DNA of 64,000 nucleotides from NCBI GenBank assembly GCA_017625935.1, contig JAGALA010000034.1, positions 18,593 to 82,592 of the forward strand. The letters are read 5' to 3'. Shown here piece after piece: positions 2,754 to 46,297 of the stretch (position 1 is the stretch's first letter; the number at the start of each line of letters is the position of its first letter). The DNA is from Clostridia bacterium (GTDB lineage Bacteria > Bacillota > Clostridia > Oscillospirales > CAG-272). The position numbers and the translations under genes were made by a program. The notes under the pieces were generated by a model. That model searched no databases, was not told the DNA's origin, and saw only the letters and a program-made list of their open reading frames with translations.

Positions 2754-4079
2754 CTATATTTCCTTTGCCAAAAAATCAAAATCGTCAAGCACCTCGACAA
2801 TCTTAACCTTGACAAAATCGCCTGCCCTGTGTCGTTTTTTGGCGGTAAAAAATATTTTTCCGTCAATATCGGGGGCGTCGTGCTCACTTCTTGCCACGTA
2901 GATTTTTTCTGCTGTGTCGTAGCCCTCGCAAAGCACGGTAATTTTCTTGCCGAGTCGGTTTTCGTTATATTCCTCTATAACGGATAGCTGCTCGCGCATT
3001 AAAATATCATATCTGTCCTGCTTCACCTGCTCGTCTATTTGATCGGGCAAATTGTATGCAGGAGTGTCCTCCTCGCGCGAATAGGTAAACGCGCCGAAGC
3101 GGTCAAATTTCACCTCACGGATGAACTCGCAAAGCTCGTTAAAATTATCCTCGCTCTCACCCGGGAAGCCTACAATCGCCGTTGAGCGAATTGCAATTCC
3201 CTCAATCTCGCGTAGCTTTTTCATTACCTCGCGCACTAATTTTCCGTCACCGCGCCTGTTCATTTTTTTAAGCACGGAGTCGCTGATGTGCTGCACGGGA
3301 ATGTCTATGTACTTAACGAGCTTTTCGTTTGTTTTCAGCTCGTTTATAAGCTCAGGCGTTATCTTATCGGGATAGCAGTATAAAATGCGAAGCCAAGCAA
3401 CGTCAGTTTCCTTAGCCAAGCGCGAAAGCAGCTCGTGCAGCTTATATTCGCCGTAAATATCAACGCCGTAGGCGGTTGTATCCTGACCTATAACTATAAG
3501 CTCCTTTATGCCCATTGAAACGAGTGACCTTGCTTCCTCAATAATTTCGTCCATAGGACGCGAGCGGAATTTTCCGCGAATAAGCGGTATTGCACAGTAG
3601 GTGCAGCGGTTGTTACAGCCCTCGGAAATTTTAAGGTAGGCGTATGCTTTGTCCTCAGTCAAAACTGCTCTGTCGCCGCCGAGCGCTACCTCATTTTTGT
3701 CCTTATATTCCGAAAAGCGCTCGCCATTCTCCACCTTTTTAACGGCATCTACGATAGAATGCACGCTTCCCGTACCGAGCACCGCGTCAATTTCGGGAAA
3801 CTCGGTGAGCAATTCGTCGCGGTATCGCTCTGCCAAGCAGCCCGTTACCACAATGCCCTTTAAATTTGCGTTTTCCTTTAGCCAAGCAATATCTAAAATA
3901 TTGTCGATTGACTCCTTTTTTGCATCGTTTATAAATGCGCAGGTGTTTATTATAACAATATCTGCCTCGGTTGGCTCAGGCGTGATTTCATATTCCGCCT
4001 TAAAAAGGTGAGCGAGCATAACCTCGGTATCGAGCTGATTTTTCGGACAACCAAGTGAAACAAAGCCGATTTTACTCAT
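2754..4079 (-). CDS. rimO: Ribosomal protein S12 methylthiotransferase (MiaB-family radical SAM with TRAM domain)
   Basis: The N-terminus is SLGCPKNQLDTE. The radical SAM motif is CNNRCTYCAIP. A TRAM-like C-terminus is present. The protein is 441 aa and sits next to pgsA, as is common in Firmicutes. Confidence 0.8.
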   Translation of the reverse strand: MSKIGFVSLGCPKNQLDTEVMLAHLFKAEYEITPEPTEADIVIINTCAFINDAKKESIDNILDIAWLKENANLKGIVVTGCLAERYRDELLTEFPEIDAVLGTGSVHSIVDAVKKVENGERFSEYKDKNEVALGGDRAVLTEDKAYAYLKISEGCNNRCTYCAIPLIRGKFRSRPMDEIIEEARSLVSMGIKELIVIGQDTTAYGVDIYGEYKLHELLSRLAKETDVAWLRILYCYPDKITPELINELKTNEKLVKYIDIPVQHISDSVLKKMNRRGDGKLVREVMKKLREIEGIAIRSTAIVGFPGESEDNFNELCEFIREVKFDRFGAFTYSREEDTPAYNLPDQIDEQVKQDRYDILMREQLSVIEEYNENRLGKKITVLCEGYDTAEKIYVARSEHDAPDIDGKIFFTAKKRHRAGDFVKVKIVEVLDDFDFLAKEI

Positions 4080-4728
4080 CTTGTCCCTTGCTCCTGTCTA
4101 TTGCGATTTTTATGCCCTCTTTGATTTCTCCAATGTTGTAGCCGTAGCGAAGGAGCGCGCCCATCATCTTCTTTACATCGTCGGAGTTACCCGAAAGCGG
4201 CATAAATTTGTTTTCGATAATGTAAGCACAGTTTTGTGCAAAGTTGACCTTTTCAAGGTTTTTCTTTACAAACTCCTGCACGTCCTCACGCTGATAGCCG
4301 TGGGCAACGAGCTCGTTTATAATTTTAAGCTTGCCATATTTCTTTTTAAGGTAGTTTTGGCAAAGAAGCTTAATTTGCTTTTTCTCGTCTATATAACCTC
4401 TGTGCTCCATATAAATTGCAACGTTTTTGCAAAGCTCGTAGGAATAGCCGCGAGCCTGAAGCTTGGTTACAAGCGCTTTTTTATTATTTTCACCGCAGGA
4501 AAGAATAGAAAATGCCGCGCGGCGAGCGTTGTCAAACAGCATTTCCTCTCTGATTTCAAGAAAATGCTTATCATATATTATCTCGCCCTCTTCAATGTCA
4601 AATCTTTCGTACTGCTCATTTGAAACAAGCATTTCAAAAACAGTGCCCATATTTGATTTTATACAAAAAATTCTGCCCGCAGGTGTTTTTTTGATTTTTT
4701 CTACCTTGTAATAGATTTCGTTTTCCAT
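4072..4728 (-). CDS. recX: RecA regulator RecX
   Basis: The gene lies immediately downstream of recA. Repeated helical RecX-type modules are present (LQARGYSYE..., LVAHGYQRED..., LLRYGYNIGE). Confidence 0.75.
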   Translation of the reverse strand: MENEIYYKVEKIKKTPAGRIFCIKSNMGTVFEMLVSNEQYERFDIEEGEIIYDKHFLEIREEMLFDNARRAAFSILSCGENNKKALVTKLQARGYSYELCKNVAIYMEHRGYIDEKKQIKLLCQNYLKKKYGKLKIINELVAHGYQREDVQEFVKKNLEKVNFAQNCAYIIENKFMPLSGNSDDVKKMMGALLRYGYNIGEIKEGIKIAIDRSKGQDE

Positions 4729-4731
4729 ATT

Positions 4732-5835
4732 TTAATCCAAATTAAGTGAATCGAGGTCGAAATCGTCGCTATCGATGTCGAAGTCCTCATCTGGTGTGGC
4801 TTCTTGGTTTGATAATTTTTCCTTGATTTTTTCTTCAAGGACGCTCATAAGCTCCGGGTTGTCCTCAAAATATTTTCTTGCGTTGTCCTTGCCCTGTGCA
4901 ATCTTTGAGCCCTCGTATGAGAACCAAGAGCCACTCTTCAAAACAAGTCCAAGCTCAATTGCAATGTCGATAATCTCGGAGGATTTTGAAATACCCTTGC
5001 CGTAAATCATATCGAATTCGGCAACCGTGAACGGTGGCGCAACCTTATTTTTAACAACCTTGCATTTTACGTGGTTACCGTATGCAACGGTGCCGTTTTT
5101 AAGGGTGTCCGCCTTTCTTACGTCAATTCTTACCGACGCGTAGAACTTAAGCGCACGTCCGCCAGTTGTTGTTTCGGGGTTTCCGTACATTACGTTTAAT
5201 TTTTCACGAAGCTGGTTGATAAAAATTACAATACAGTTTGTCTTTGCAATAGCGCCCGAGAGCTTTCTTAGTGCCTGTGACATAAGGCGCGCCTGAAGTC
5301 CCATATGAGAATCTCCCATTGAGCCCTCAATTTCCTGTCTTGGAACAAGCGCCGCAACGGAGTCAACAACTATAATATCAACCGCACCCGAGGAAACGAG
5401 CTTTTCCGTAATTTCAAGCGCCTGCTCACCGTTATCGGGCTGAGAAACTAAAAGCTCGTCAATATTAACGCCTATTGCCTTTGCATATACGGGGTCAAGT
5501 GCGTGCTCCGCATCGATAAATGCCGCTGTGCCGCCAAGCTTTTGGCTCTCGGCAACCGCGTGAAGCGCAATAGTTGTTTTACCCGAGGATTCAGGACCGT
5601 AAATTTCTATAATTCTGCCCTTTGGAAGTCCGCCAACGCCAAGTGCCAAGTCAAGCGTTAATGAGCCTGTTGAAATAGCTCCTATTTGAATATCTGCCTT
5701 ATCGCCAAGGCGTCTTATCGACTCCTCGCCGCATTCCTTTTTTATTTGTGAGAGCGCGGTTTCAAGTGCCTTTTTCTTTTCCTGGTCATTTGTTACCATC
5801 TCTGCCTTCGTTACCTTTGTAGCCTTTTTTGCCAT
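4732..5835 (-). CDS. recA: Recombinase RecA
   Basis: The Walker A motif GPESSGKTT and the canonical RecA core are present. The start was chosen at MAKKATK (ATG at 5835) because it is preceded by a GGAG RBS. The longer ORF to 5883 lacks an RBS. Confidence 0.95.
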
Positions 5836-5863
5836 TATTTTCTCCTTCAAAATGGATTTAATT

Positions 5864-6487
5864 TCAATACGTCGGTGAGTCAATTCGCCAACCGTTTTCC
5901 TCTAAAATGAGCGTAACCAAAATTGTTTGCTCGCCGCCTAAGGAGGTTACGTACGCCTCTATAAAGCGCCTTGAAATTTTCTTAATTTCAATAGTTGAGG
6001 TATCGTATTTTAAAACGTCAATGCTAAAATAGCCGTCATCAAGCTTTTCTCCGTCTATGCTTTCACCGTGAACGGTTTTTTCCTTCAGCACCAAAAAGCC
6101 CTGATTGTTTTCGATGTAGCGCGCGGGCACACCCGTGCCGCCGACTGCGCCGCTTTGTCCCTCAAACGCGGTATTTTTCATAGTGGTTGAATACTTAACC
6201 GAGAACACCTTGCCAATAGCAACCTCGATATCGTATATTGAGTTATACTTATCGTTTTCCTTAACAAGCGCGTATCTTGTGTTTTTTGATTCCTCGGTTT
6301 CGATATATTCAAGCCCTTCTCCAAAAACGATTTCATTAAGCTCGTAGGATGCGTCAACTAATTCAGCAACCTTCAAGGTTGCCTCCTCCTCAGTGAGCTT
6401 TTTCTGACAGCCTGTCAGCCCAAGTACAAATATAAATACAAGGGCTATACAAGCTAATCTTATTGAATTTTTATTTATTTTTGTCAT
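5864..6487 (-). CDS. Hypothetical lipoprotein
   Basis: A signal peptide with the lipobox LGLTGC is present. The ATG at 6487 has a GAGG RBS. The TTG at 6499 used by the ORF track is less likely. Confidence 0.6.
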
Positions 6488-9106: not shown

Positions 9107-11044
<1,938 letters not shown>

Positions 11045-34606: not shown

Positions 34607-35263
34607 TTTTTCAACAATTTCTGTGCTCGATTTATAGATAGAGTTTCCCATAACCGTACCGCGCACGCATGAAAGCGGGTAGATAATGGCGTTTGGAAAG
34701 ATGAGCGTGCCGGGGTTTAAAACCGAGCCGCAGCCGACCTCGGCGTGTCCACCGACGACTGCGCCCATTTTGCGCAGCCCTGTGTCGATTTTTTCTCCGT
34801 TTATGCTTACCTTAACGCTTGATTTGTTGATTTTTAGATTTGAAATCACCGCGCCTGCGCCAAGGTGCGCGCCTTCGGAGAGAATCGAATTGCCGACATA
34901 ATTAAAATGCGGAACACACGCGCGGTCATATAGAATAGAATGCTTTATTTCACAACTGTTGCCAACCACCGCGCCGCGCCCAATTATCACCTCGCCGCGC
35001 AAATATGCTCCGTGGCGTAGCTCCGCGCCCTCGCAAATTACGGCTCTGCCCTCAATTTTGACACTGTTTGGAATGGTTATTCCGCGAAAAACGTACACTC
35101 CCTCGCCAATTTTTTCAAAATCGTCACCTAAATCATTAATTACACTTGATATGATATCGGGAATTTTTTCAATCGCCTGCCAAGGCAAGCGGTGCTTTAT
35201 TATCTCGCTGTGCGCAATTGATGCGTCGCTTCCTAAAATTCTTTCTGTTAAATTAATACTCAC
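34595..35263 (-). CDS. Left-handed beta-helix (hexapeptide-repeat) protein, GlmU C-terminal acetyltransferase-like
   Basis: Hexapeptide repeats are present (IGRGAVVGNSCEI, LGAGAVISN, VGGHAEVGCGSVL). The gene overlaps the glmM stop, which suggests an operon. Confidence 0.55.
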   Translation of the reverse strand: MSINLTERILGSDASIAHSEIIKHRLPWQAIEKIPDIISSVINDLGDDFEKIGEGVYVFRGITIPNSVKIEGRAVICEGAELRHGAYLRGEVIIGRGAVVGNSCEIKHSILYDRACVPHFNYVGNSILSEGAHLGAGAVISNLKINKSSVKVSINGEKIDTGLRKMGAVVGGHAEVGCGSVLNPGTLIFPNAIIYPLSCVRGTVMGNSIYKSSTEIVEKSFN

Positions 35264-36584
35264 TATCGCACTCCGAAATTAAATTTTGCAGCTCCGCGCA
35301 AATTTCACGACACAGGGTGGTGCTTTTTCCCTCTACAAGCACGCGAATTTTCGGTTCAGTTCCGCTTGCGCGCACCAAAATCCGTCCACTCCCCAGCACC
35401 TTTTCGTAATAATCAACCATTTCCCAAATGCGCGGATTTTCAATTGTTTTTTCTTTGTTTCCAACCAAAACCGCACCCTGTATCGACGGAAAGGTAGAAA
35501 AGCCGTCAAGCAAGGAGGCAATCTTACCGCCGTTTTTATGCGCCAGCTCACTTATCTTTATTGAGGTTAAAATTCCGTCACCCGTCCTTGCGTATTTACT
35601 TATAATTATGTGACCCGAGTCCTCGCCGCCCAAGGAGTATCCGCCGCGCTTCATTTCCTCGTAAACAAAACGGTCGCCGACCTGTGTTTTCTTTACCTCT
35701 ATCCCCTTTCCTTGAAATGATTCCCAAGTGCCTGAATTTGACATAACGGTTGTGACAACAGTATTCTTGTTCAGCGCTCCCTGCTCCTTTAGGTTGTTGC
35801 CCAAAACGTATAAAATTCCGTCACCGCTTACGACCATTCCCGTTCCGTCAACCGCTAAGCACCTGTCAGCATCTCCGTCGTATGCAAAGCCGATATCGAG
35901 CTTGCTTTCCTTGACAAAGCGCACAAGCGTGTCGATATTTGTCGAGCCGCATCCGTCATTTATATTTACGCCGTTTGGTTTGTCTGCGATAGTATAAACA
36001 CTCGCGCCCAAGCGTTCAAAAGCCTCACGCGCAACCAAGCACGCGCTGCCGTTGGCAGTGTCAAGCCCCACCCTTAGTCCGTTTAGCTCACGCTCATTAC
36101 AGGCAACAAGATAATCGACGTATTTTTTTGCGCCCTCACTAAATTCAACTGCTTTTCCGATGCTTTTTGCCTTTTTGGTCGGGGACGTGTCTGTTTTTGC
36201 GTCCAAAAACTGCTCTATTTTGTCTGTTTCCTCATCACTCAGCTTCTCGCCTGTATGGCTTAAAATCTTAATTCCGTTGTCGTAATACGGATTATGGCTT
36301 GCCGAAATCATAACGCCATAGTTAAAGTCGCACGTGTACGTTAGGTATGAGGCACACGGTGTTGTGTTTACACCCAAAAGATATACGTCAGCACCCATGC
36401 TCGTCGCGCCTGCGCTCAGTGCACATTCAAGCATACCTGACGAGAGGCGTGTGTCCTTGACAACGAGAATTTTTCCACCGCTTGACTCTTTGCCTAAATA
36501 TTTTCCTATCTTAAAGGCATGCTCTGCACAAAGCTGTTCCCCTGCTTTTCCGCGAAAGCCGTCTGTCCCAAAATATTTTCCCAT
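35253..36584 (-). CDS. glmM: Phosphoglucosamine mutase
   Basis: The N-terminus is YFGTDGFRG and the active-site loop is SASHNPYYDNGIK. The start was chosen at MGKYFGTDG (ATG at 36584) after a GGAGG RBS. Confidence 0.93.
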   Translation of the reverse strand: MGKYFGTDGFRGKAGEQLCAEHAFKIGKYLGKESSGGKILVVKDTRLSSGMLECALSAGATSMGADVYLLGVNTTPCASYLTYTCDFNYGVMISASHNPYYDNGIKILSHTGEKLSDEETDKIEQFLDAKTDTSPTKKAKSIGKAVEFSEGAKKYVDYLVACNERELNGLRVGLDTANGSACLVAREAFERLGASVYTIADKPNGVNINDGCGSTNIDTLVRFVKESKLDIGFAYDGDADRCLAVDGTGMVVSGDGILYVLGNNLKEQGALNKNTVVTTVMSNSGTWESFQGKGIEVKKTQVGDRFVYEEMKRGGYSLGGEDSGHIIISKYARTGDGILTSIKISELAHKNGGKIASLLDGFSTFPSIQGAVLVGNKEKTIENPRIWEMVDYYEKVLGSGRILVRASGTEPKIRVLVEGKSTTLCREICAELQNLISECDSEY

Positions 36585-36679
36585 ATAATCCTCCAAAATT
36601 TTGCAAATTACGAGAAAAACTACATTATTTATTATATGTATGTTATTTTGGTTTGCTATTTTCTAAAATAAAAATTGGC

Positions 36680-37949: not shown

Positions 37950-38157
37950 ATTCCTCCTTATATAAAAAATAGGGGCACGGCGTGCTCCTTTATTGTGTTT
38001 TCAGAACGCGCCGTAAACAGCAAACGAGGCCTTCGTTGCTCTAAATTTATTATAACATATAAAAACGCGCGTTTTCAATATGTAATTGAGAAAATTTTGC
38101 GACAAAATACGATTTTTCAAAAAATTAAAAAAATTCAAAAAAATTTTTAAAAACCTA

Positions 38158-38199
38158 TTGACAAACGAAAAAATTTTGATATAATGATAATAGTAATCA
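38158..38199 (+). promoter_or_regulatory. Sigma-A-type promoter with an overlapping Fur/PerR-box-like operator
   Basis: TTGACA lies at 38158-38163, a 16-nt spacer follows, and TATAAT lies at 38180-38185. tgataatagtaatca (38185-38199) resembles the 7-1-7 Fur-family box TGATAATnATTATCA. Confidence 0.6.
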
Positions 38200-38223
38200 T
38201 TACTGATAAGGATGGTGAAGAAA

Positions 38224-38601
38224 ATGAGAGAAACAAAGCAAAAAACGGCTATACTCGAATTTCTTCGTTCCAAGCGTCAGCATCACAGCGCAATTCAAAT
38301 ATATGATGCGGTCAGGGAAAAAATTCCCAATATTAGCCTCGGCACGGTATATAGGAATCTTGGCGCGCTTATTGAAAGCGGAGAAATTATATCTGTCGAA
38401 ACGAACGATAAATGCGTTTTTTACGATGGATTTATAGCTGACCACGCGCATTTTGTCTGTCAAGGGTGTAAGGGCATTTTCGATTTTGATATGCCGACGG
38501 GAATGACGGAGGAAATGAAAAAATCGGGCTTTAAGGTAAGCTCCGAGCATCTTGTTTGCTACGGCTTATGTAGCGAATGTGCAAAAAATACTGCACAATA
38601 A
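38224..38601 (+). CDS. perR: Fur-family peroxide-responsive repressor (PerR-like)
   Basis: The winged-helix motif is GTVYRNL. The CxxC...CxxC zinc site is present (CQGC, CSEC). The gene is adjacent to rubrerythrin. The start is at 38224 or 38212. Confidence 0.75.
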   Translation: MRETKQKTAILEFLRSKRQHHSAIQIYDAVREKIPNISLGTVYRNLGALIESGEIISVETNDKCVFYDGFIADHAHFVCQGCKGIFDFDMPTGMTEEMKKSGFKVSSEHLVCYGLCSECAKNTAQ

Positions 38602-38640
38602 AAAAGCTAAAAATTTTATTTATATAGAGGAGTTAAAATT

Positions 38641-39189
38641 ATGAAAAAGTTTGTATGTTCTGTTTGCGGTTACGTTCACGAGGGAGATAGCGCACCTGAA
38701 AGATGCCCACAATGCAAGGTTCCCGCGGAAAAATTCAACGAGGTTGTTGAGGAAAACCGTTTTTGGGCTGCTGAGCACGTTGTAGGTGTTGCTCAAGGCG
38801 CACGTGAGGACATTATTATGGACCTTCGCGCTAACTATATGGGCGAATGCACAGAGGTTGGTATGTATCTTGCAATGGCAAGAGTTGCACACCGCGAGGG
38901 CTATCCCGAGATCGGTCTTTATTGGGAAAAGGCAGCTTGGGAGGAGGCTGAGCATGCTGCAAAGTTTGCAGAGCTTCTCGGCGAGGTTGTAACTGACTCA
39001 ACAAAGAAGAACCTTGAAATGCGTGTTGAAGCGGAAAACGGCGCAACAGCCGGCAAGTTCGACCTTGCAAAGCGCGCAAAGGAGCTTAACCTCGACGCCA
39101 TCCACGACACCGTTCACGAAATGGCTCGCGACGAGGCAAGACACGGAAAGGCATTTGAGGGACTTCTTAATAGATATTTCAAAAAGTAA
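38641..39189 (+). CDS. rbr: Reverse rubrerythrin (N-terminal rubredoxin domain plus ferritin-like diiron domain)
   Basis: The N-terminus has CSVCGY...CPQC. Diiron ExxH motifs follow ([16 protein letters not shown]). Confidence 0.88.
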
Positions 39190-39305
39190 GATAAAGCCTT
39201 CTGTTTTTGTCCATAGGGACACTTTCTGACAGGTGGGTATTCGGCTAATAGCAAAGGCGGACGGCGAAAGCTGTTCGCCTTTGCTATACTGTTCTGTGCG
39301 TTGTT

Positions 39306-40973
39306 TTATGCTGATTCTGAGATTGTTTCCGTGCATTGAGGCGGTTTTTCTTCGCTTTCCGCTTCCTGATCCCATTCTCCGATATCACGGTAGACGATTC
39401 GGATTTTTTGAGTGGAATGCCTTGAGTATTTTTCGGTACGCTCGCCTATCTCAATTCTTGCAATAAACAATCTTACGATTTCGGGTGTCAGCACATCAAT
39501 GCTCTTGTACTTTTTGGCTTTTTCAATGAAGGCATTGACATTGTCGGCAGAGGACTTCAGCTTACCGAGCCTTTCTTCCTTCTGCGGTATTGCTTCATCC
39601 AATCCATTCTGCTCGGCATTATAATCGCCGGAGAGTAGTCGGAACTGCTCGTTGGTGATTCGTCCAAGCACGTTATCCTCGTACAGCCGTTTGAATAATG
39701 CGGTCAGCTCATCACGGCGTTTACGCATGGAGTCAAGCTCTCGCTGAAGTGAGGTTATCTCCCTGCGAAGTTCTACGCTGTTTTTGCGATTGATATACTC
39801 CGCAAACTGCCGTTCCTTCATTCTCGCTATATGCGTTACTCTACGCAAGTCATCCAGTATGATTTCATACAGTTCATCCTCACGGATATGGTGAGGCGAG
39901 CATTCCGCTTTGCCACGCTTTCCGTAGGTATAGCATTTGAAATTATAACTAGATTTTTTCATTGTGCTTGCTCTGTGCAAAACCATTGATCTTCCGCAAT
40001 CGGCACAGAAGGTGATTCCCGAAAATATATTCGGTTCTTCCATCTGTTTCGGCGCTCTCTTTTTCTGCTTGCGCAGATCCTGAACGATATCCCATTGCTC
40101 TCTTGTTATCAACGCAGGATGCGTATTTTCCACGATAATAACTTCATTGTCGGGGCGAGTGATCGCCTTTTTGTTTTTGTAGGATATCGTAGTGTGGCGC
40201 AATCCAACCGTATGACCAAGGTATACCATATTTTCAAGGATAGCGGTAACGGTACTGCCTGTCCAATGATACGGGTGAGTCGTGTCCAATTGATTGTGCG
40301 ACTTTCCGAATGCGTGATAATAATAGTTTGTGGGATTGTAGATTTTTTCGTTACTCAAAATACGGGCAATCTGATTGGGGCCTTTGCCTGCCGCACACAT
40401 TGCAAATATCCTTTTTACGATGATGGCTGTTTCCTCATCGGGAATAATCGCTTTACTGTCCTTATCGACCTTTTTGTATCCATAAGGCGGTTTACCACCG
40501 AGCCGTTCACCACGCTCTGCCTGAAGCTTTTTAACGGCACGAACCTTCTTGCTCGAATCCTTTGCGTGAAGCTCGTTCGCCCAATTTCGTATAGGGCTGA
40601 AATCGTTACTGCTTTCAATCAGCGAGTCAACGCCGTCGTTGATGGCAATGAAGCGAACGCCCATTCTTGGAAAATACAGTTCGGTATAATATCCGACCTG
40701 CAGGTATTCTCGTCCGAGTCGGGAGAGGTCTTTGACGATTAAGGTTTCGACCTCGCCTCGTTCAATCATTTCCTCAATTTGCTTCCACGAAGGACGGTCA
40801 AAGTTCGTTCCCGAATAACCGTCATCCGCAAGGAATATCGTGTTTTCAAAGCCGTTGTCCTTCGCATATTTTTCGAGCAATAATCTTTGATTGATGATAC
40901 TGTTGGAGTCACCCATACGAGCATCCTCTTGACTCAATCTTCCATAGAGTATATTAAATTTTTGGCTTGTCAT
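39306..40973 (-). CDS. Large serine recombinase (TnpX-like, with zinc-ribbon, coiled-coil and DUF4368-like C-terminus)
   Basis: The resolvase catalytic N-terminus is YGRLSQEDARMGDSNSIINQ...KDLSRLGR. The recombinase domain and the Cys cluster CADCGRSM...C are present. The protein is 555 aa. Confidence 0.9.
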   Translation of the reverse strand: MTSQKFNILYGRLSQEDARMGDSNSIINQRLLLEKYAKDNGFENTIFLADDGYSGTNFDRPSWKQIEEMIERGEVETLIVKDLSRLGREYLQVGYYTELYFPRMGVRFIAINDGVDSLIESSNDFSPIRNWANELHAKDSSKKVRAVKKLQAERGERLGGKPPYGYKKVDKDSKAIIPDEETAIIVKRIFAMCAAGKGPNQIARILSNEKIYNPTNYYYHAFGKSHNQLDTTHPYHWTGSTVTAILENMVYLGHTVGLRHTTISYKNKKAITRPDNEVIIVENTHPALITREQWDIVQDLRKQKKRAPKQMEEPNIFSGITFCADCGRSMVLHRASTMKKSSYNFKCYTYGKRGKAECSPHHIREDELYEIILDDLRRVTHIARMKERQFAEYINRKNSVELRREITSLQRELDSMRKRRDELTALFKRLYEDNVLGRITNEQFRLLSGDYNAEQNGLDEAIPQKEERLGKLKSSADNVNAFIEKAKKYKSIDVLTPEIVRLFIARIEIGERTEKYSRHSTQKIRIVYRDIGEWDQEAESEEKPPQCTETISESA

Positions 40974-41079
40974 TTATAAGCATCCTCCTTGTTCTGCAGG
41001 GCAAGCCGATACGGTACACCAAGCATATCACATCGGCTTGCCGAAGTCCAGCGGAAAGAAGTAAAAAATCGGATAACTT

Positions 41080-41349
41080 TTACTTCTTTTTCATATCCGC
41101 ATCTATTAATTCAAGCATTTTATCCGTAGCGGTTGCGGTGCTTTCAACGGGAAACACGGATGATATAATAAACCGCTTTCCCTTGATAATCATACTTCGC
41201 TCACGGGTATAATTAACATCGTCAACCGTATAATCGGAGTCTTGGTAGACGGCTCTTGCCGTGCCATCCTCCGATTTTTTAATTGTGGCTTTTTCGGGAT
41301 AGTAAGCTCCCAATCTTCCTGTTGTAAGGTATTCTTTCGCTTCGTTCAT
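41080..41349 (-). CDS. Small hypothetical protein of the integrative element
   Basis: The protein is 89 aa from the ATG at 41349, which has a strong AAGGAG RBS. It lies directly upstream of the recombinase gene. Confidence 0.5.
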   Translation of the reverse strand: MNEAKEYLTTGRLGAYYPEKATIKKSEDGTARAVYQDSDYTVDDVNYTRERSMIIKGKRFIISSVFPVESTATATDKMLELIDADMKKK

Positions 41350-41470
41350 AGAGTTCTCCTTTACATTCCACTCATTACGGGGCCTGATTGTTGTTCTTTC
41401 TTCTTTCTGCTCGGTGCATAGTGTATCGTGGTGCAATCTTCAACGTAGGCATCCTCGTCGATGATATTGG

Positions 41471-41764
41471 TTAGATCAGCGATAAAATAAGCCGTATCAC
41501 TTCCCAGACTATAAGCACCGCCGTCGGTATCAAAGCGATGCGGTTGAGCCGCTTCGTATATGCTTCCATCGCTTCCTTCTCCGAAGACATATTCCTCGAA
41601 AAGCTTTCGCTCGCTTTCCCAACCTGTTCCGTTACGCTCTGTGCTGCCGTGGTCATCTTGCTCTCGGTGTCCGTTGCCAAGCTCGTCAGCAGTTCCTGAA
41701 ATTCTGCCGTTTCGTCCCGACATGCATCCGAGTATCTCGTCAGCGTATCGATCTGTTGATCCAT
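41471..41764 (-). CDS. Hypothetical coiled-coil protein with a C-terminal TM anchor, probably 5'-truncated or degraded
   Basis: The frame has a helical Ala/Ser/Glu-rich sequence and the hydrophobic tail IALIPTAVLIVWEVIRLILSLI. A second long ORF (41361-41864) overlaps it in another frame. Coding status is unresolved. Confidence 0.3.
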   Translation of the reverse strand: MDQQIDTLTRYSDACRDETAEFQELLTSLATDTESKMTTAAQSVTEQVGKASESFSRNMSSEKEAMEAYTKRLNRIALIPTAVLIVWEVIRLILSLI

Positions 41765-41806
41765 AAGACTTGTGAGTTCGTTCTTCGTCGCAAGGCTCGG
41801 AAGCGT

Positions 41807-43810
41807 ATGAAAAAGAGAAAAGAAAGCTTTTGGGGACTGCATTTTGATTTTCACGCAAAGCCAACGGATGTGTCTATCGGAAAAGCTCTTAAGGAAGAGG
41901 AAATAAGAGAAATATGCAGGGAGCTAAAGCCTGATTTTATTCAGATTGATTGCAAGGGCCACCCCGGATATACGTCTTATCCGACAAGTCTTGGAAACGC
42001 TGTTCCCGATATGGAAAAGGATACACTTGCGCTTTGGCGCAGAGTAACAAAAGAGGAAGGTGTTTCTCTTTATATGCATTACTCGGGCGTGTATGACGTT
42101 AAATATTGTGATGAGCATCCAAATGAACGCGCGCTTATGGCAGGCGGAAGGTATCACAATGGCTCAACGAGGTTGATTGGCTCTTACAGTGATGAGCTTT
42201 TAATCCCTCAGCTTTTAGAGCTTGCCGAAAAATACGAGGTTAACGGTGTTTGGATTGACGGGGATTGCTGGATGGCTCTTTCTGATTTCTCAGGTGAAAC
42301 AATTTCCGCCTTTGAAAAGGAAACAGGAATAGATTTAGAGGGAAATTTGCCTGAAAATCCAAGCGATAAATATTATTATGAATACAAGGAATTTAACAGA
42401 GAGCTTTTCAGAAGATATTTGCGCCACTATGTAGACGCAGTCCATGAAAAGCATCCTGATTTTGAAATATGCTCCAACTGGGCATTTAGCGACCATATGC
42501 CGGAGGAGGTTTGTGCAAACGTTGACTTTTTATCTGGCGATTTAAATCCCATGAACTCCTTTAGTTCTGCGCGCTATGCCGCAAGAGCGCTTGCACAGCA
42601 AAACGGATACGCTTGGGATTTGATGTCATGGAACTTCAGAAACATAGTGGGCGGCAAGCAGGGATACTGCGCAAAGCATCCAAATCAGTTAAAGCAGGAG
42701 GCAGCGTCTGTAATTTCCGTTGGTGGAGCGTTTCAGGATTATATTCCTCAAAACAGAGACGGCTCTCCCAGAATGTGGGAAATAAGAAACCTAAAGGACG
42801 TTTCGAAATTCGTCCTTGAAAGAAAGGAGTTTTGTCATCGCGGAAAAGTGGTGCCACAGGCTGCACTTTTGCTCTCAACCTACGATAGAGCCAGGGAGTC
42901 GGAGCATTTATTCTCGCGCACGGGCTATGAAAAGACAATGGGTATGACTGCTCTTCTTTGCGATGTAGGTCAATCTCTTGAAATTGTCGGTGAACATACC
43001 TTATTTGAAAAAATAAACGAATATAAGATGATAGTTGTGCCTGAGCTATACTGTGGTCTTGAAGAAAAAACAATAGAAGCGCTCCTTGGCTATGCAAAAA
43101 ATGGTGGAAATTTGGTTTTGGTTGGTAAAAACACCTGTTCTGTTTTTTCAAGCGCGGGCGCACCGTACTTATGCAAGGAGTTTTCCGAATTTGTTGCTAA
43201 CGAGTCAAAGGGCACAGAAGATGGACACAATAACGCATCTACAAATAAACTTAAGCCGTATTGGTTTACAATTGATGGTAGATGCTTTGGCAATTTATTC
43301 TCTCCCTGTGAAATATATGCAGAGAACGGAAAATATAACGCGTATTTTTGCGAAAATCCGACAGAAAAACCACACCCCATTTCTGCAACGGTGATATTTG
43401 GAAAGGGAACCGTTACAGCAATAGGCTTTGACATTGGCTCGGAGTATTTGAACGGAACGCAGTTTTTGCAAAGAGATCTTATGCGTGAAATAGCAAATAG
43501 TCTATACGTGCCCATTGTAAGAGTAGAAAAAGCGAATGGAAGACTTGAGGTTGTATCGTTAGAAAAGGATGGAAATCTTATGATTCAGCTTGTGAATGCG
43601 GGTGGCACCCACACCGATGCGAGTGTGGCAAGTGATGATTATATTCCGCCAATCCTTGATATAACTCTTTCACTTTCCTTGGAAAACGAGCCTGAAGCTC
43701 TTATTTTACAGCCACAGGGTCGAGAATTGATGTTTACAAAGGAATCAGACGGAAGCTTTAGAGTAGATATTGACAGGGTAGATATTCATAGTGTTGTTGA
43801 GGTATGCTAA
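41807..43810 (+). CDS. Putative glycoside hydrolase (TIM-barrel, GHL6 / alpha-L-fucosidase-like N-terminal domain)
   Basis: The N-terminal pattern is GLHFDFHA...IQIDCKGHPGYTSYPT...LYMHYSG. The protein is about 668 aa from MKKRKESFWG. Family assignment is tentative. Confidence 0.5.
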   Translation: MKKRKESFWGLHFDFHAKPTDVSIGKALKEEEIREICRELKPDFIQIDCKGHPGYTSYPTSLGNAVPDMEKDTLALWRRVTKEEGVSLYMHYSGVYDVKYCDEHPNERALMAGGRYHNGSTRLIGSYSDELLIPQLLELAEKYEVNGVWIDGDCWMALSDFSGETISAFEKETGIDLEGNLPENPSDKYYYEYKEFNRELFRRYLRHYVDAVHEKHPDFEICSNWAFSDHMPEEVCANVDFLSGDLNPMNSFSSARYAARALAQQNGYAWDLMSWNFRNIVGGKQGYCAKHPNQLKQEAASVISVGGAFQDYIPQNRDGSPRMWEIRNLKDVSKFVLERKEFCHRGKVVPQAALLLSTYDRARESEHLFSRTGYEKTMGMTALLCDVGQSLEIVGEHTLFEKINEYKMIVVPELYCGLEEKTIEALLGYAKNGGNLVLVGKNTCSVFSSAGAPYLCKEFSEFVANESKGTEDGHNNASTNKLKPYWFTIDGRCFGNLFSPCEIYAENGKYNAYFCENPTEKPHPISATVIFGKGTVTAIGFDIGSEYLNGTQFLQRDLMREIANSLYVPIVRVEKANGRLEVVSLEKDGNLMIQLVNAGGTHTDASVASDDYIPPILDITLSLSLENEPEALILQPQGRELMFTKESDGSFRVDIDRVDIHSVVEVC

Positions 43811-43875
43811 TGCTGTCAAAATAGTGATTCATCACGGGAACTCCAAGGTTGAATTGACGTAAATCTTGGCAACTA

Positions 43876-43927
43876 GGCAAGACACGGCAAGGCATTTGAA
43901 GGTTTACTTAATCGTTACTTTAAATAA
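43876..43927 (+). pseudogene. Orphan rubrerythrin 3' fragment A (encodes [16 protein letters not shown])
   Basis: ggcaagacacggcaaggcatttgaaggtttacttaatcgttactttaaataa aligns to rbr 39136-39189 but is diverged. It is followed by its own terminator. Confidence 0.8.
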
Positions 43928-43939
43928 TAAATACATAAA

Positions 43940-43965
43940 GGGAGTGCATAAGTGCTCCCTTTTTC
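43940..43965 (+). terminator. Rho-independent terminator after fragment A
   Basis: The stem gggagtgc-ataa-gtgctccc is followed by TTTTT. Confidence 0.7.
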
Positions 43966-44065
43966 CGTGTCAACTCCTTCCACCGCTTACATAGTGAGTG
44001 CGTAGTTAAAGTATATACGCTGCGGTCCCTCTCTGCACAAGGCACGCCGCAAGGGTGCCTCAAAG

Positions 44066-44122
44066 ATGGAGGCTATTGGAAAGGCATTCGAGGGACTTCT
44101 CAACAGATACTTCAAGAAATAA
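44066..44122 (+). pseudogene. Orphan rubrerythrin 3' fragment B (encodes ...[17 protein letters not shown])
   Basis: ggaaaggcattcgagggacttctcaacagatacttcaagaaataa aligns to the end of rbr. It is followed by a REP and a terminator. Confidence 0.8.
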
Positions 44123-44125
44123 AAT

Positions 44126-44151
44126 GTAGGGACAGGCGTCCCCGACTGTCC
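44126..44151 (+). repeat. GTAGGG-plus-hairpin REP-like element
   Basis: The sequence is gtagggacaggcgtccccgactgtcc (gggac / gtccc stem). Confidence 0.65.
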
Positions 44152-44184
44152 GTTAATACAAGGGTTTTTAGAACTAATACATAG

Positions 44185-44215
44185 AGGGAATGAGTTTAAC
44201 TTGTTCCCTTTTTTG
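44185..44215 (+). terminator. Rho-independent terminator
   Basis: The stem agggaa...ttccct is followed by TTTTTT. Confidence 0.7.
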
Positions 44216-44401
44216 TTGCACTTTTTCCACAAAAACATGGAAAATTTATGGAATTTTGAAGGTATTGTTTTTGGAAAAAGGTCAAATTATGGAATTTGTA
44301 ATTATGGAATTTTCAGATCGTGATTTTAGGATATGCAAAACTTTACAAACGATTTTAGTAATGCTATAATATTATAAACAAGCCAAATGCGAGGAGAGTA
44401 T

Positions 44402-45133
44402 ATGTTTATTGCAATAGATAAAGATAACAATCGAGTAGAAATTGAAAACGCAGATAAAACAAAAGAATATTTTTGCCCTGTTTGTGGAGAAAAATTAAGC
44501 ATTAGGGCGAAAGAGTCAATTTCTGTCAAAACGCATTTTGCTCACAAAAGAAATAGCCAATGTGTCGATGATTGGAATCACGATATGAGTGAGTGGCATT
44601 TAAATTGGCAAAGAAGGTTCCCGACCGAGTGCCGTGAAGTGGTTATAGAACATAACGGGACAAAGCATAGGGCAGACGTTTGTATAGGAAAAACAATAAT
44701 AGAATTTCAACATAGCCCGTTAAGCAGCGAGGAATTTGGAAAAAGAAATGAGTTTTATACAAATTGTGGCTATAAAGTGGTTTGGGTGTTTGATGCAGAA
44801 GGAAAGATAGCAAGTTGCCATCCGAAAGCCTATGGTATCGATCCAAATGAACTTTCTTTTGTTGAACTTTGCTGGAAAAGAAAAAATGTTCTTTTTTTGA
44901 CTAAACCTTCTTCTAAATTGGAGATTTTTATACAGTATAAAGTCGAAAAACAAGATATAATGCTAAAACTGAAAAACGTTTCTTCTAAAGGTTTTAAGTT
45001 TTATCGCACATATCCTAACTATTTGTTGATTGAAAATTTTTTGAAAGAATATGGTGCGAATGTAGATCCAAGAGTCCGCTCTGTTTCAGTGATTATCGAG
45101 CAAACAAAGGACATTTACAAAAGCATTCCATAA
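44402..45133 (+). CDS. CoiA-like competence family protein (putative nuclease)
   Basis: The motifs YFCPVCGEKL...HFAH, SEWHLNWQ, KHRADV and IEFQHSPLSSEEF match the CoiA family layout. The RBS is gaggagag. Confidence 0.7.
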   Translation: MFIAIDKDNNRVEIENADKTKEYFCPVCGEKLSIRAKESISVKTHFAHKRNSQCVDDWNHDMSEWHLNWQRRFPTECREVVIEHNGTKHRADVCIGKTIIEFQHSPLSSEEFGKRNEFYTNCGYKVVWVFDAEGKIASCHPKAYGIDPNELSFVELCWKRKNVLFLTKPSSKLEIFIQYKVEKQDIMLKLKNVSSKGFKFYRTYPNYLLIENFLKEYGANVDPRVRSVSVIIEQTKDIYKSIP

Positions 45134-45343
45134 GAGAATTTGAGATTTTATTGTCCTATGAATTGAAAAATTAATTGAAAATTTAATCTTTTGCAGTTGC
45201 AGAGCTAACACCATTTTTTGCTTGAACTGTGTTTGCGATTGTGATATAATTTAACTAACAAGCAAAGTGACGATAGAGAGAATATGCACAAGTGCAAAAA
45301 ATTATTTTTACAAGCACGGTGAGTTGAAAATAAAGGAGCAAAA

Positions 45344-46297
45344 ATGCGCAGGCTTTTATCTATAATTTTAATTATTTTGATTGCGGTTTCCTCTGTGGCG
45401 GTGTGTGGCTGCACAGATAGGGGTGACGAAGGCGCCCACCTTGAATTGAATACCGATTTTAAGGAGCCGACAAGTTTAAGCGACGGCGAGGGGAAAGACG
45501 TCAAGGTGATTTTGTTGCTTGGTCAGAGCAATGCAACAGGCTGTGCGCTAAACAGCTATCTTGAGGAAAACGTCGGCAAGGAGGAATACAGCATATATGA
45601 AGACGGCTTTTCGGGTGTTTTAACCAACTTTAGCGTTGACAATCAGCTTAACACATCATGCGGTGAATTTGTAAAAACCGCCGTCGGTTTTGGACACAGG
45701 GTCGAGTATTTCGGACCCGAGCTTGGCATTGCCGAGAAGCTTTCGAGCGCGTACCCCGACGAAACAGTTGTAATTTTGAAATACACGTATTCGGGGAGCT
45801 GTCTTAAAACACAGTGGCTTGATGACGGTGAGCGCGGCGATATTTACAAGGCGTGTATGAATTTTACGGAAACTTATATGAATGCACTCATAGAAAGCAA
45901 TTATGACGCAAAAATCGGTGCAATATGCTGGATGCAGGGCGAGAGCGATGCCGTGAAAAACGTCGCTGATGAATATTATGACAACCAAAAGCGGTTTGTT
46001 TCCTTTCTAAGAGAGGACCTTGATAAATACGCGGACGATGGAAAAATATACTTTATTGATGCGGGAATTCAAGCGGGCAATATTTTCCCAATGTATGAAA
46101 CGGTCAACGAGGCGAAGGCGCGATTTGCAAATGAATCCGAGCTGAATTTATATTTTTCAACGATAGATGAAGGTTTGACAACAAATCTTGAGCCAAAAGA
46201 AGCTCCCGATCTTGCACACTATGATTCTATGAGTGAATTAAAGCTCGGTCATCTTTTTGCTGAGTATATAATAAGCTCGTATGAAAAAAGAAATTGA
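45344..46297 (+). CDS. SASA/DUF303-type carbohydrate esterase lipoprotein (sialate O-acetylesterase-like)
   Basis: The lipobox is AVCGC. The motifs LLLGQSNATG and WMQGESD are present. Confidence 0.7.
   Translation: MRRLLSIILIILIAVSSVAVCGCTDRGDEGAHLELNTDFKEPTSLSDGEGKDVKVILLLGQSNATGCALNSYLEENVGKEEYSIYEDGFSGVLTNFSVDNQLNTSCGEFVKTAVGFGHRVEYFGPELGIAEKLSSAYPDETVVILKYTYSGSCLKTQWLDDGERGDIYKACMNFTETYMNALIESNYDAKIGAICWMQGESDAVKNVADEYYDNQKRFVSFLREDLDKYADDGKIYFIDAGIQAGNIFPMYETVNEAKARFANESELNLYFSTIDEGLTTNLEPKEAPDLAHYDSMSELKLGHLFAEYIISSYEKRN

Follow-up and report, generated by a model that had tools for sequence, protein, structure and literature searches.

The 3' end of the reverse rubrerythrin gene rbr, a gene of peroxide defense, appears to be a repeatedly used integration site in a gut Clostridia bacterium (Oscillospirales, CAG-272), of which we analyzed a 64,000-nucleotide stretch of contig JAGALA010000034.1 (assembly GCA_017625935.1), hereafter the window. 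We estimate a probability of roughly 80% that the region beginning with the last 14 codons of rbr and ending at position ∼45333 is an accretion array at a tyrosine integrase attachment site. According to this reading, elements from at least two tyrosine integrase families would carry a copy of the rbr tail together with a terminator in their attachment sites. Recombination within or beside GACGAGGCAAGACAC|GG would insert such an element so that its own synonymous copy completes rbr and the previous tail is moved to the far side, and after successive integrations, loss of the integrase and of most other genes would leave nonautonomous modules separated by orphan tails. What carries this reading are repeats of the gene end, the points at which junctions switch type, polymorphism among strains, a mosaic gene tail, and the linkage of integrases to rbr in other genomes, all of which were observed directly. 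Coordinates of the features discussed are collected in Table 1.

Three copies of the rbr gene end

The window encodes an intact reverse rubrerythrin (Rbr) with an N-terminal rubredoxin-like domain and a ferritin-like domain, preceded by a perR-like repressor gene with a promoter-like site at 38158-38185 (12/12 match in a promoter scan). An exact-protein lookup recovered the identical Rbr protein on 17 contigs. The last 13 to 14 codons of the gene are present in three copies on the plus strand, one at the end of the intact gene (39145-39189) and two orphans downstream, A (43886-43927) and B (44078-44122). Direct reading, a six-frame motif scan, and a repeat search, which returned a single repeat family, agree on this finding. 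A sequence-only reading of the same DNA had already recognized three copies, which are real with their extents corrected to those given here; the extra residues EAI that it had assigned to orphan B (44066-44076) are not homologous to rbr. That reading had also described the copies as the same in protein and diverged at synonymous sites, and this holds throughout: over the shared 39 nucleotides (nt), the intact copy differs from A at 9 positions and from B at 5, while A and B differ at 12, and every change is silent. In simulations, the peptide was retained in only 2e-4 of trials with 5 random substitutions and in 0 of 200,000 with 9 or 12, indicating that the divergence arose while each copy was selected as the end of a working gene.

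Both orphans are followed by a hairpin and U-run typical of a terminator (for orphan A, a dG of -17 kcal/mol and a z score of -5.8). The hairpin 3' of the intact gene is strong and has no U-run, and we assign it to a serine recombinase element (see below) because it is kept in relatives of that element in unrelated genomes; the proposal that each copy has its own terminator thus stands for A and B and fails for the intact gene. Neither a tRNA nor an Rfam family was found in 38000-46000 with ARAGORN and Rfam, and the spacers were therefore rejected as a known RNA or tRNA fragment. The same arrangement is found in at least six independent assemblies (L001, L006, L008, L010, L012, and L061) and is therefore not an assembly artifact. 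A conserved ATG ahead of orphan B opens a 19-codon open reading frame (ORF; 44063-44122) that is also present in L003, L004, and L067 and probably arose as a by-product of the degenerate core.

Strain polymorphism and a mosaic gene tail

We gathered related contigs by exact lookup of the Rbr and PerR proteins across assemblies. Contigs encoding the identical Rbr have at least five different contents 3' of the gene, organized as modules bounded by two to five same-strand tail copies. The layout of the window is shared by L001, L006, L008, L010, and L061. In L002, L005, and L009, rbr is followed by a GH43 gene and then a gene for a 667-amino-acid glycosidase, with no recombinase; in L003 by two small modules, then the GH43, glycosidase, and CoiA-like genes; in L004 by an 8.3-kb element with a tyrosine integrase and then the glycosidase gene; and in L007 by unrelated genes. 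Extra same-strand rbr tails lie at module borders in L002 (two), L003 (four or five), and L004 (two). Direct repeats of the rbr 3' end flank inserted DNA in the window (starting at 39145, 43886, and 44078), in L004, and in L063, and the modules are present or absent among related genomes with junctions at a fixed point.

The end of the intact gene is itself variable. Between strains, nt 1 to 504 of rbr differ by only 1 to 2.6%, whereas divergence reaches 31% in the last 42 nt and leaves the amino acids unchanged, which indicates that the intact gene tail itself is exchangeable. Window positions 39106-39182 are 100% identical over 77 nt to an orphan (9480-9556) in L063; this locus comes from a different species and has only 82% identity across its perR-rbr region. 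In every junction comparison, the sequence type switches at the GG of Gly169, immediately past GACGAGGCAAGACAC (window 39130-39146).

L004 contains a complete element. This 8.3-kb tyrosine integrase element is bordered by the intact tail on one side and by a 91-bp rbr copy on the other, and the right part of that copy is the A-type tail. Read outward, the far junction consists of an element arm, rbr-like sequence with element-type mismatches, and the core, past which follow the A-type tail, its terminator, the 150-bp spacer of the window, and the B-type tail. This order implies that the ancestor of L004 had an rbr ending in an A-type tail, and the intact rbr of L002 still carries an A-like tail. 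Two proposals of the sequence-only reading, that integration has made repeated use of the rbr 3' end and that the orphans are displaced former gene ends, are supported.

Two smaller features were observed near orphan tails. A hairpin-rich insert of ∼135 nt lies between an orphan stop codon and an 'aagcctt' linker in both L003 (8460-8590) and L063 (9590-9700, reverse strand); it occurs in both species and may represent either a miniature element or a structured RNA. Short G+C-rich tandem repeats (ggtgcggtggaggatggcgc...) are located directly past the distal orphan tail of L002 (11960-12040).

Tyrosine integrases linked to rbr tails

Two families of tyrosine integrases adjoin an rbr tail in every context examined, comprising five and four lineages, respectively. 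Family 1 is represented by the L004 integrase (9171-10391; Pfam Phage_integrase) and has thousands of homologs, of which we inspected the contexts of clusters at 84, 83, 69, and 60% identity. An rbr fragment lies ∼150 to 300 bp upstream of the integrase start in all four, and in L063 the intact rbr is at the opposite end of the family 1 element, with four further orphans. These elements are 8 to 12 kb long and encode a replication initiator, helix-turn-helix (HTH) regulators, a small invertase-type recombinase, and WYL and SprT-like proteins, together with variable cargo such as AIPR or methyltransferases. Family 2 integrases have an arm-binding domain and are ∼27 to 31% identical to family 1. 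They are encoded on the plus strand 330 to 380 bp past an rbr tail in all four lineages (L109, L163-L167, with the L163 gene at 5001-6212, L160, and L168-L173), and the sequence between the terminator and the integrase gene contains the repeats GTGGGAA (twice), TTTCCCAC, and GTGGGAA (L109, L160, L163, and L168).

The family 2 integrase of L160 comes after an orphan tail, and a third tyrosine integrase of 445 amino acids (3163-4674), ∼30% identical to family 2, ends ∼110 bp before that orphan. An orphan preceded by one integrase and followed by another points to the accretion of two integrase-bearing elements.

The family 1 integrase is less than 25% identical to any integrase in phage records. 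A viral origin was considered and rejected, as nothing was recovered in three scans of viral contigs, two with the rbr-tail coding pattern and one with the ATGGAAT block described below. No conjugation module was seen alongside the rbr-tail elements, and in the literature we found no paper that names rubrerythrin as an attachment site.

Modules without integrases

The glycosidase gene and its flank (41806-43870) are present without any recombinase in L002, L003, L004, and L005. Up to the core (...GACAC), the window, L002, and L003 share the same sequence 3' of the gene; past it, the window continues into an A-type tail and L002 and L003 into a B-type tail with its linker. Hence either the glycosidase module or a 190-bp unit of A plus spacer sits at different tail copies in different strains, which a simple deletion could not have produced and which implies integration of a nonautonomous unit or of a composite. 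In L154-L159, from another species, the gene has 92.2% nucleotide identity to the window copy versus 80.5 to 82.7% for neighboring core genes (window 41806-43804 against L154 1145-3143 and L157 3900-5898). This identity and the placement at different tail copies lend indirect support to possible mobilization of the module by an integrase. In the L154-L159 loci it is headed by an orphan tail, a terminator, and an AT-rich block; in L157 the gene stands behind the orphan tail and block with no intact rbr in view.

The stretch between orphans A and B, which the sequence-only reading took for the remnant of an older element, fits that description, with its extent revised to 43928-44077 (150 bp). 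The unit of A, spacer, and B is nearly identical in L003 and L004 and recognizable in L067 (∼78% overall), at other array positions. Within this otherwise near-identical spacer, a 26-nt insert at 44032-44057 that forms a small G+C-rich hairpin is found only in the window lineage. Both 41806-43870 and 43928-44077 are integrase-less units that are flanked by attachment site copies and lack transfer genes, as are the cis-mobilizable elements (CIMEs) and microCIMEs of other bacteria.

The AT-rich block that follows orphan B recurs past rbr-tail copies in L002, L003, L004, L007, L063, L067, L068, and L154-L159, and it may hold arm-type integrase binding sites. Modules with this ATGGAAT block resemble the left ends of family 2 elements in architecture. 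A 414-amino-acid ORF of L007 was considered as a hidden integrase and rejected, since it has no integrase domain. In the window, the CoiA-like module begins with such a unit of tail, terminator, and block; L002 and L005 have other genes in its place, and homology resumes at 45333, which marks the end of the strain-variable region, 11 bp ahead of the SASA gene. The right end of an L003 module has a match in the window at 45162-45207, an arm-like remnant. The G+C content of the modules (42 to 46% versus 44% overall) is a weak signal and is low only in the block (27%) and the CoiA-like gene (34%).

An unrelated serine recombinase remnant

Directly behind the intact gene lies a truncated mobilizable element whose recombinase has the TnpX/TndX-like domain set and is 38.8% identical to TndX. 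Its closest relative, L013 (98% protein identity), is located beside lysS and contains genes for AAA_25, a NikA/MobC-like protein, a MobA/VirD2 relaxase, the 89-amino-acid ORF, and the recombinase. This full mobilization set is found in L013, whereas the window copy is cut at 41805 within the relaxase gene (residue 307 of 453) and has a single end motif; no second element end is present in the window. Plasmid carriage of the remnant was considered and rejected, as the plasmid collection contained no nucleotide match to it.

The right junction lies 1 nt before the glycosidase ATG (41807). In L004 this gene is preceded by a spacer, a terminator, and the AT-rich block, all of which must have been lost from the window in the deletion that removed the remainder of the element. 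With that deletion the glycosidase gene lost both its native promoter and its ribosome-binding site, and at 41800-41809 only GGAAG is left a few nucleotides upstream of it.

Alternative explanations for the repeated gene ends

The sequence-only reading had attributed the repeats to the TnpX-like recombinase, proposing that a 4.7-kb element (39190-43875) carrying it targeted the rbr 3' end and displaced orphan A. The spacing fits this proposal, with the recombinase gene ending 117 bp past the rbr stop, as that reading had correctly measured, and orphan A located 4.7 kb downstream. The boundaries of the element do not fit. The window is identical to L003, L004, and L007, in which the target of the insertion is seen uninterrupted, through GATAAAGCCTT (39200) and then diverges into CTGTTTTTGTCCATAGGGAC..., 11 bp past the rbr stop codon, so that the left boundary falls in the linker behind the replaced tail, and no rbr repeats flank the element. 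A scan of a genome collection recovered 43 loci, in 42 of which the recombinase has a clear relative; homology to the window stops there at 39192-39204, all 42 are at unrelated sites in other genomes, and in none is an rbr tail nearby. The supposed younger element is also not one unit, consisting of the serine recombinase remnant, cut within its relaxase gene, and an unrelated glycosidase module whose orphan junction exists without the recombinase in L002-L005. Finally, mobilizable elements of this type use 2-bp identities for recombination, show little specificity for their targets, and leave behind only very short repeats (PMC5704250), and a 45-nt gene-tail duplication is therefore not expected from them. 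We consider it very improbable that this recombinase made the duplication; the element is an unrelated, truncated insertion.

Decay of tandem rbr paralogs into fragments is scarcely credible, even though two or three full-length paralogs do stand in tandem in some distant species (L078, L090, L114, and L138). The sequence-only reading had named full-length copies between the fragments as the observation to look for, and no strain examined has one. Moreover, in the species of the window and its relatives no orphan extends upstream of ∼codon 153, orphans begin at a few fixed points, and they flank unrelated cargo and carry element-type arms. An explanation that deserves more weight, and that we still regard as unlikely, is that the ∼250-bp unit of rbr tail, linker, terminator, and AT-rich block acts mainly as portable homology, with integrases having seeded only the first copies and modules having since been gained, lost, and reordered by homologous recombination after DNA uptake. 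The units are 80 to 90% identical over 150 to 250 bp, the cargo modules have no integrase, and the array contains CoiA-like or TfoX-like competence genes that differ by strain. Against this, the switch occurs at one exact point (...GACAC|GG) even where only ∼15 nt of homology is available on one side, which fits site-specific exchange rather than exchange dependent on homology length, and two integrase families are tightly linked to the site.

Proposed history of the array

If the array grew by accretion at a tyrosine integrase site, the window would have passed through four stages. A gene with a B-type tail would have taken up an element, now reduced to 150 bp, that supplied tail A; integration of the glycosidase module at tail A would then have provided the present tail; the unrelated serine recombinase element would have inserted 11 bp past the stop codon; and a deletion of the distal part of that element plus ∼190 bp of host spacer would have ended 1 nt before the glycosidase start codon. 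The exact crossover, the order of these events, and any independent movement of integrase-less modules are inferred.

Several observations weigh against accretion at such a site. Neither integrase family was found in the 64-kb window by tblastn, and nothing there can now act on the sites; the window accordingly holds remnants rather than an element, and an integrase gene adjoins the attachment site only in sister loci (L004, L063-L069, L109, L160, L163, and L168). No circular or excised junction was observed. Homologous recombination between the ∼250-bp repeated units could account for part of the reshuffling. The motif order of the AT-rich block differs from that of the family 2 arm repeats, the likeness being one of composition, and a search for ATGGAAT-block modules with an integrase recovered none at the loci seen, which makes these modules putative decayed elements. 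The distal end of the array has no recognizable terminal rbr copy. Lastly, in a survey of 80 metagenome loci with Rbr homologs of 74 to 88% identity, 55 of which have at least 3 kb of downstream sequence, orphans or an adjacent integrase were found in only three (L082, L131, and L109), which indicates that the hotspot is lineage restricted.

It is also possible, though in our view doubtful, that the integrase-less modules are a population of nonautonomous cassettes, and not dead remnants, that are captured, reordered, and passed between species by integrases which co-resident elements provide in trans. Candidates are the glycosidase and CoiA-like genes and, in relatives, cellulases, Abi, and others, each headed by an rbr tail, a terminator, and an ATGGAAT-repeat block. 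Were this so, the rbr tail would be an integron-like exchange platform for carbohydrate-degrading and defense genes in gut Clostridia.

Distribution and comparison with known systems

The three surveyed loci with the signature differ in form. In L082, a 57-bp repeat that begins with GACGAGGC surrounds a 2-kb module, L131 has tandem mini-repeats, and L109 has an adjacent integrase. In L131, from a distant species, the last approximately seven rbr codons and the stop codon occur in three tandem copies with a 49-bp period (10502-10638). Genuine full-length rbr paralogs were found in four other surveyed loci.

Tandem accretion at a gene 3' end with CIME and microCIME remnants is known from streptococcal elements (PMC7563491). 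A close parallel is offered by elements of Streptococcus thermophilus and S. salivarius, namely those of the ICESt1/ICESt3 type together with CIMEs and microCIMEs, which occupy the 3' ends of fda and other genes (PMC7563491; Bellanger et al. 2011, cited there). There, too, a tyrosine integrase acts on the 3' end of a housekeeping gene, whose tail is present in duplicate as direct repeats, and tandem arrays contain integrase-less remnants that retain attachment sites, some of them very small. The array described here differs in its rbr target, its uncultured gut Clostridia hosts, the lack of any conjugation module seen, the absence of an integrase from the window, and its cargo of glycosidases and competence-like and defense genes, and its mobilization is putative. 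In Prochlorococcus tycheposons (bioRxiv 10.1101/2020.12.28.424599), successive integrations also push older elements inward with partial target copies between them, and degenerate remnants and cargo modules stay behind, but the target is a tRNA gene, so that neither coding constraint nor synonymous divergence applies, and the integrase lineage and hosts are different.

Integron cassette arrays share the promoter-poor or single-gene modules, the repeated site-like unit between them, and a fixed anchor. However, the integron features IntI, attI, and attC were not found; the genes flanking the array are perR, yccF, and rbr, the anchor has no IntI-type integrase next to it, the repeats are a coding tail and terminator rather than attC hairpins, and mobility of single modules is hypothetical here. 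As for the serine recombinase remnant, its recombinase has the same domain set, including DUF4368, as those of Tn4451/Tn4453 (TnpX) and Tn5397 (TndX), and its fuller relative has mobilization genes, but in contrast to Tn4451/Tn5397 its relaxase is of the MobA/VirD2 type rather than MobV, and the window copy is one-ended and truncated and has no role in the rbr repeats.

The target gene and the integrase lineages are thus new and the mechanism is a known one. With these findings, the catalog of integration hotspots in uncultured gut Clostridia gains an attachment site in coding sequence, at the tail of reverse rubrerythrin, and two tyrosine integrase lineages that are poorly characterized; glycosidase and defense genes ride in the array. 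For annotation, the orphan tails are best regarded as scars rather than pseudogene paralogs, the last 14 codons of rbr as foreign, and the recombinase as a dead, unrelated insertion.

Features of the array and neighboring genes

TABLE 1 Features in and around the rbr array, in window coordinates
Feature	Position	Strand	Description
perR-like FUR-family repressor gene	38224-38601	+	Pfam FUR, E 6e-22; first of the perR-rbr pair
Reverse rubrerythrin gene rbr, intact	38641-39189	+	182 amino acids; Pfam RUBY_RBDX (residues 4-32), Rubrerythrin (62-175)
Common core GACGAGGCAAGACACGG	39130-39146	+	Putative crossover region; type switch after ...GACAC|GG
Current gene tail (v1)	39145-39200	+	Last 14 codons, stop, 11-nt linker; putative element-derived replacement
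Truncated serine recombinase mobilizable element	39201-41805	-	Left limit ambiguous within 39193-39201
End motif of serine recombinase element	39201-39232		
Hairpin of serine recombinase element	39248-39287		
Recombinase gene	39306-40973		Pfam Resolvase, Recombinase, Zn_ribbon_recom, DUF4368
89-amino-acid ORF in serine recombinase element	41080-41349		
Relaxase gene fragment, MobA/VirD2 type	41361-41804		Last 147 codons; matches residues 307-453
Glycoside hydrolase-like gene	41807-43810	+	667 amino acids; weak Pfam alpha-L-fucosidase match; cargo of integrase-less module 41806-43870
Orphan A	43871-43927	+	Degenerate core 43871-43885 and putative former rbr tail 43886-43927; terminator 43937-43967
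150-bp micro-remnant (microCIME-like) between A and B	43928-44077	+	Ends in degenerate core (GGAGGCTATT|GG)
Orphan B	44078-44217	+	Putative older rbr tail 44078-44122 and linker hairpin; terminator 44183-44217
Conserved AT-rich block	44218-44310	+	TTTCCAC...TGGAA and repeated (A/T)ATGGAAT; heads every cargo module
CoiA-like gene and flank	44402-45333	+	Gene 44402-45133, flank to ∼45333; Pfam CoiA_N, CoiA_nuc

Outside the array, a phosphoglucomutase and hexapeptide transferase gene pair is located upstream of yccF on the minus strand of the window (35253-36596 and neighbors). A pair of the same kind is found in L002 (12255-14529) and L005 downstream of the glycosidase gene, on the plus strand and in the place of the CoiA-like gene, with the phosphoglucomutase fused to an HTH domain.

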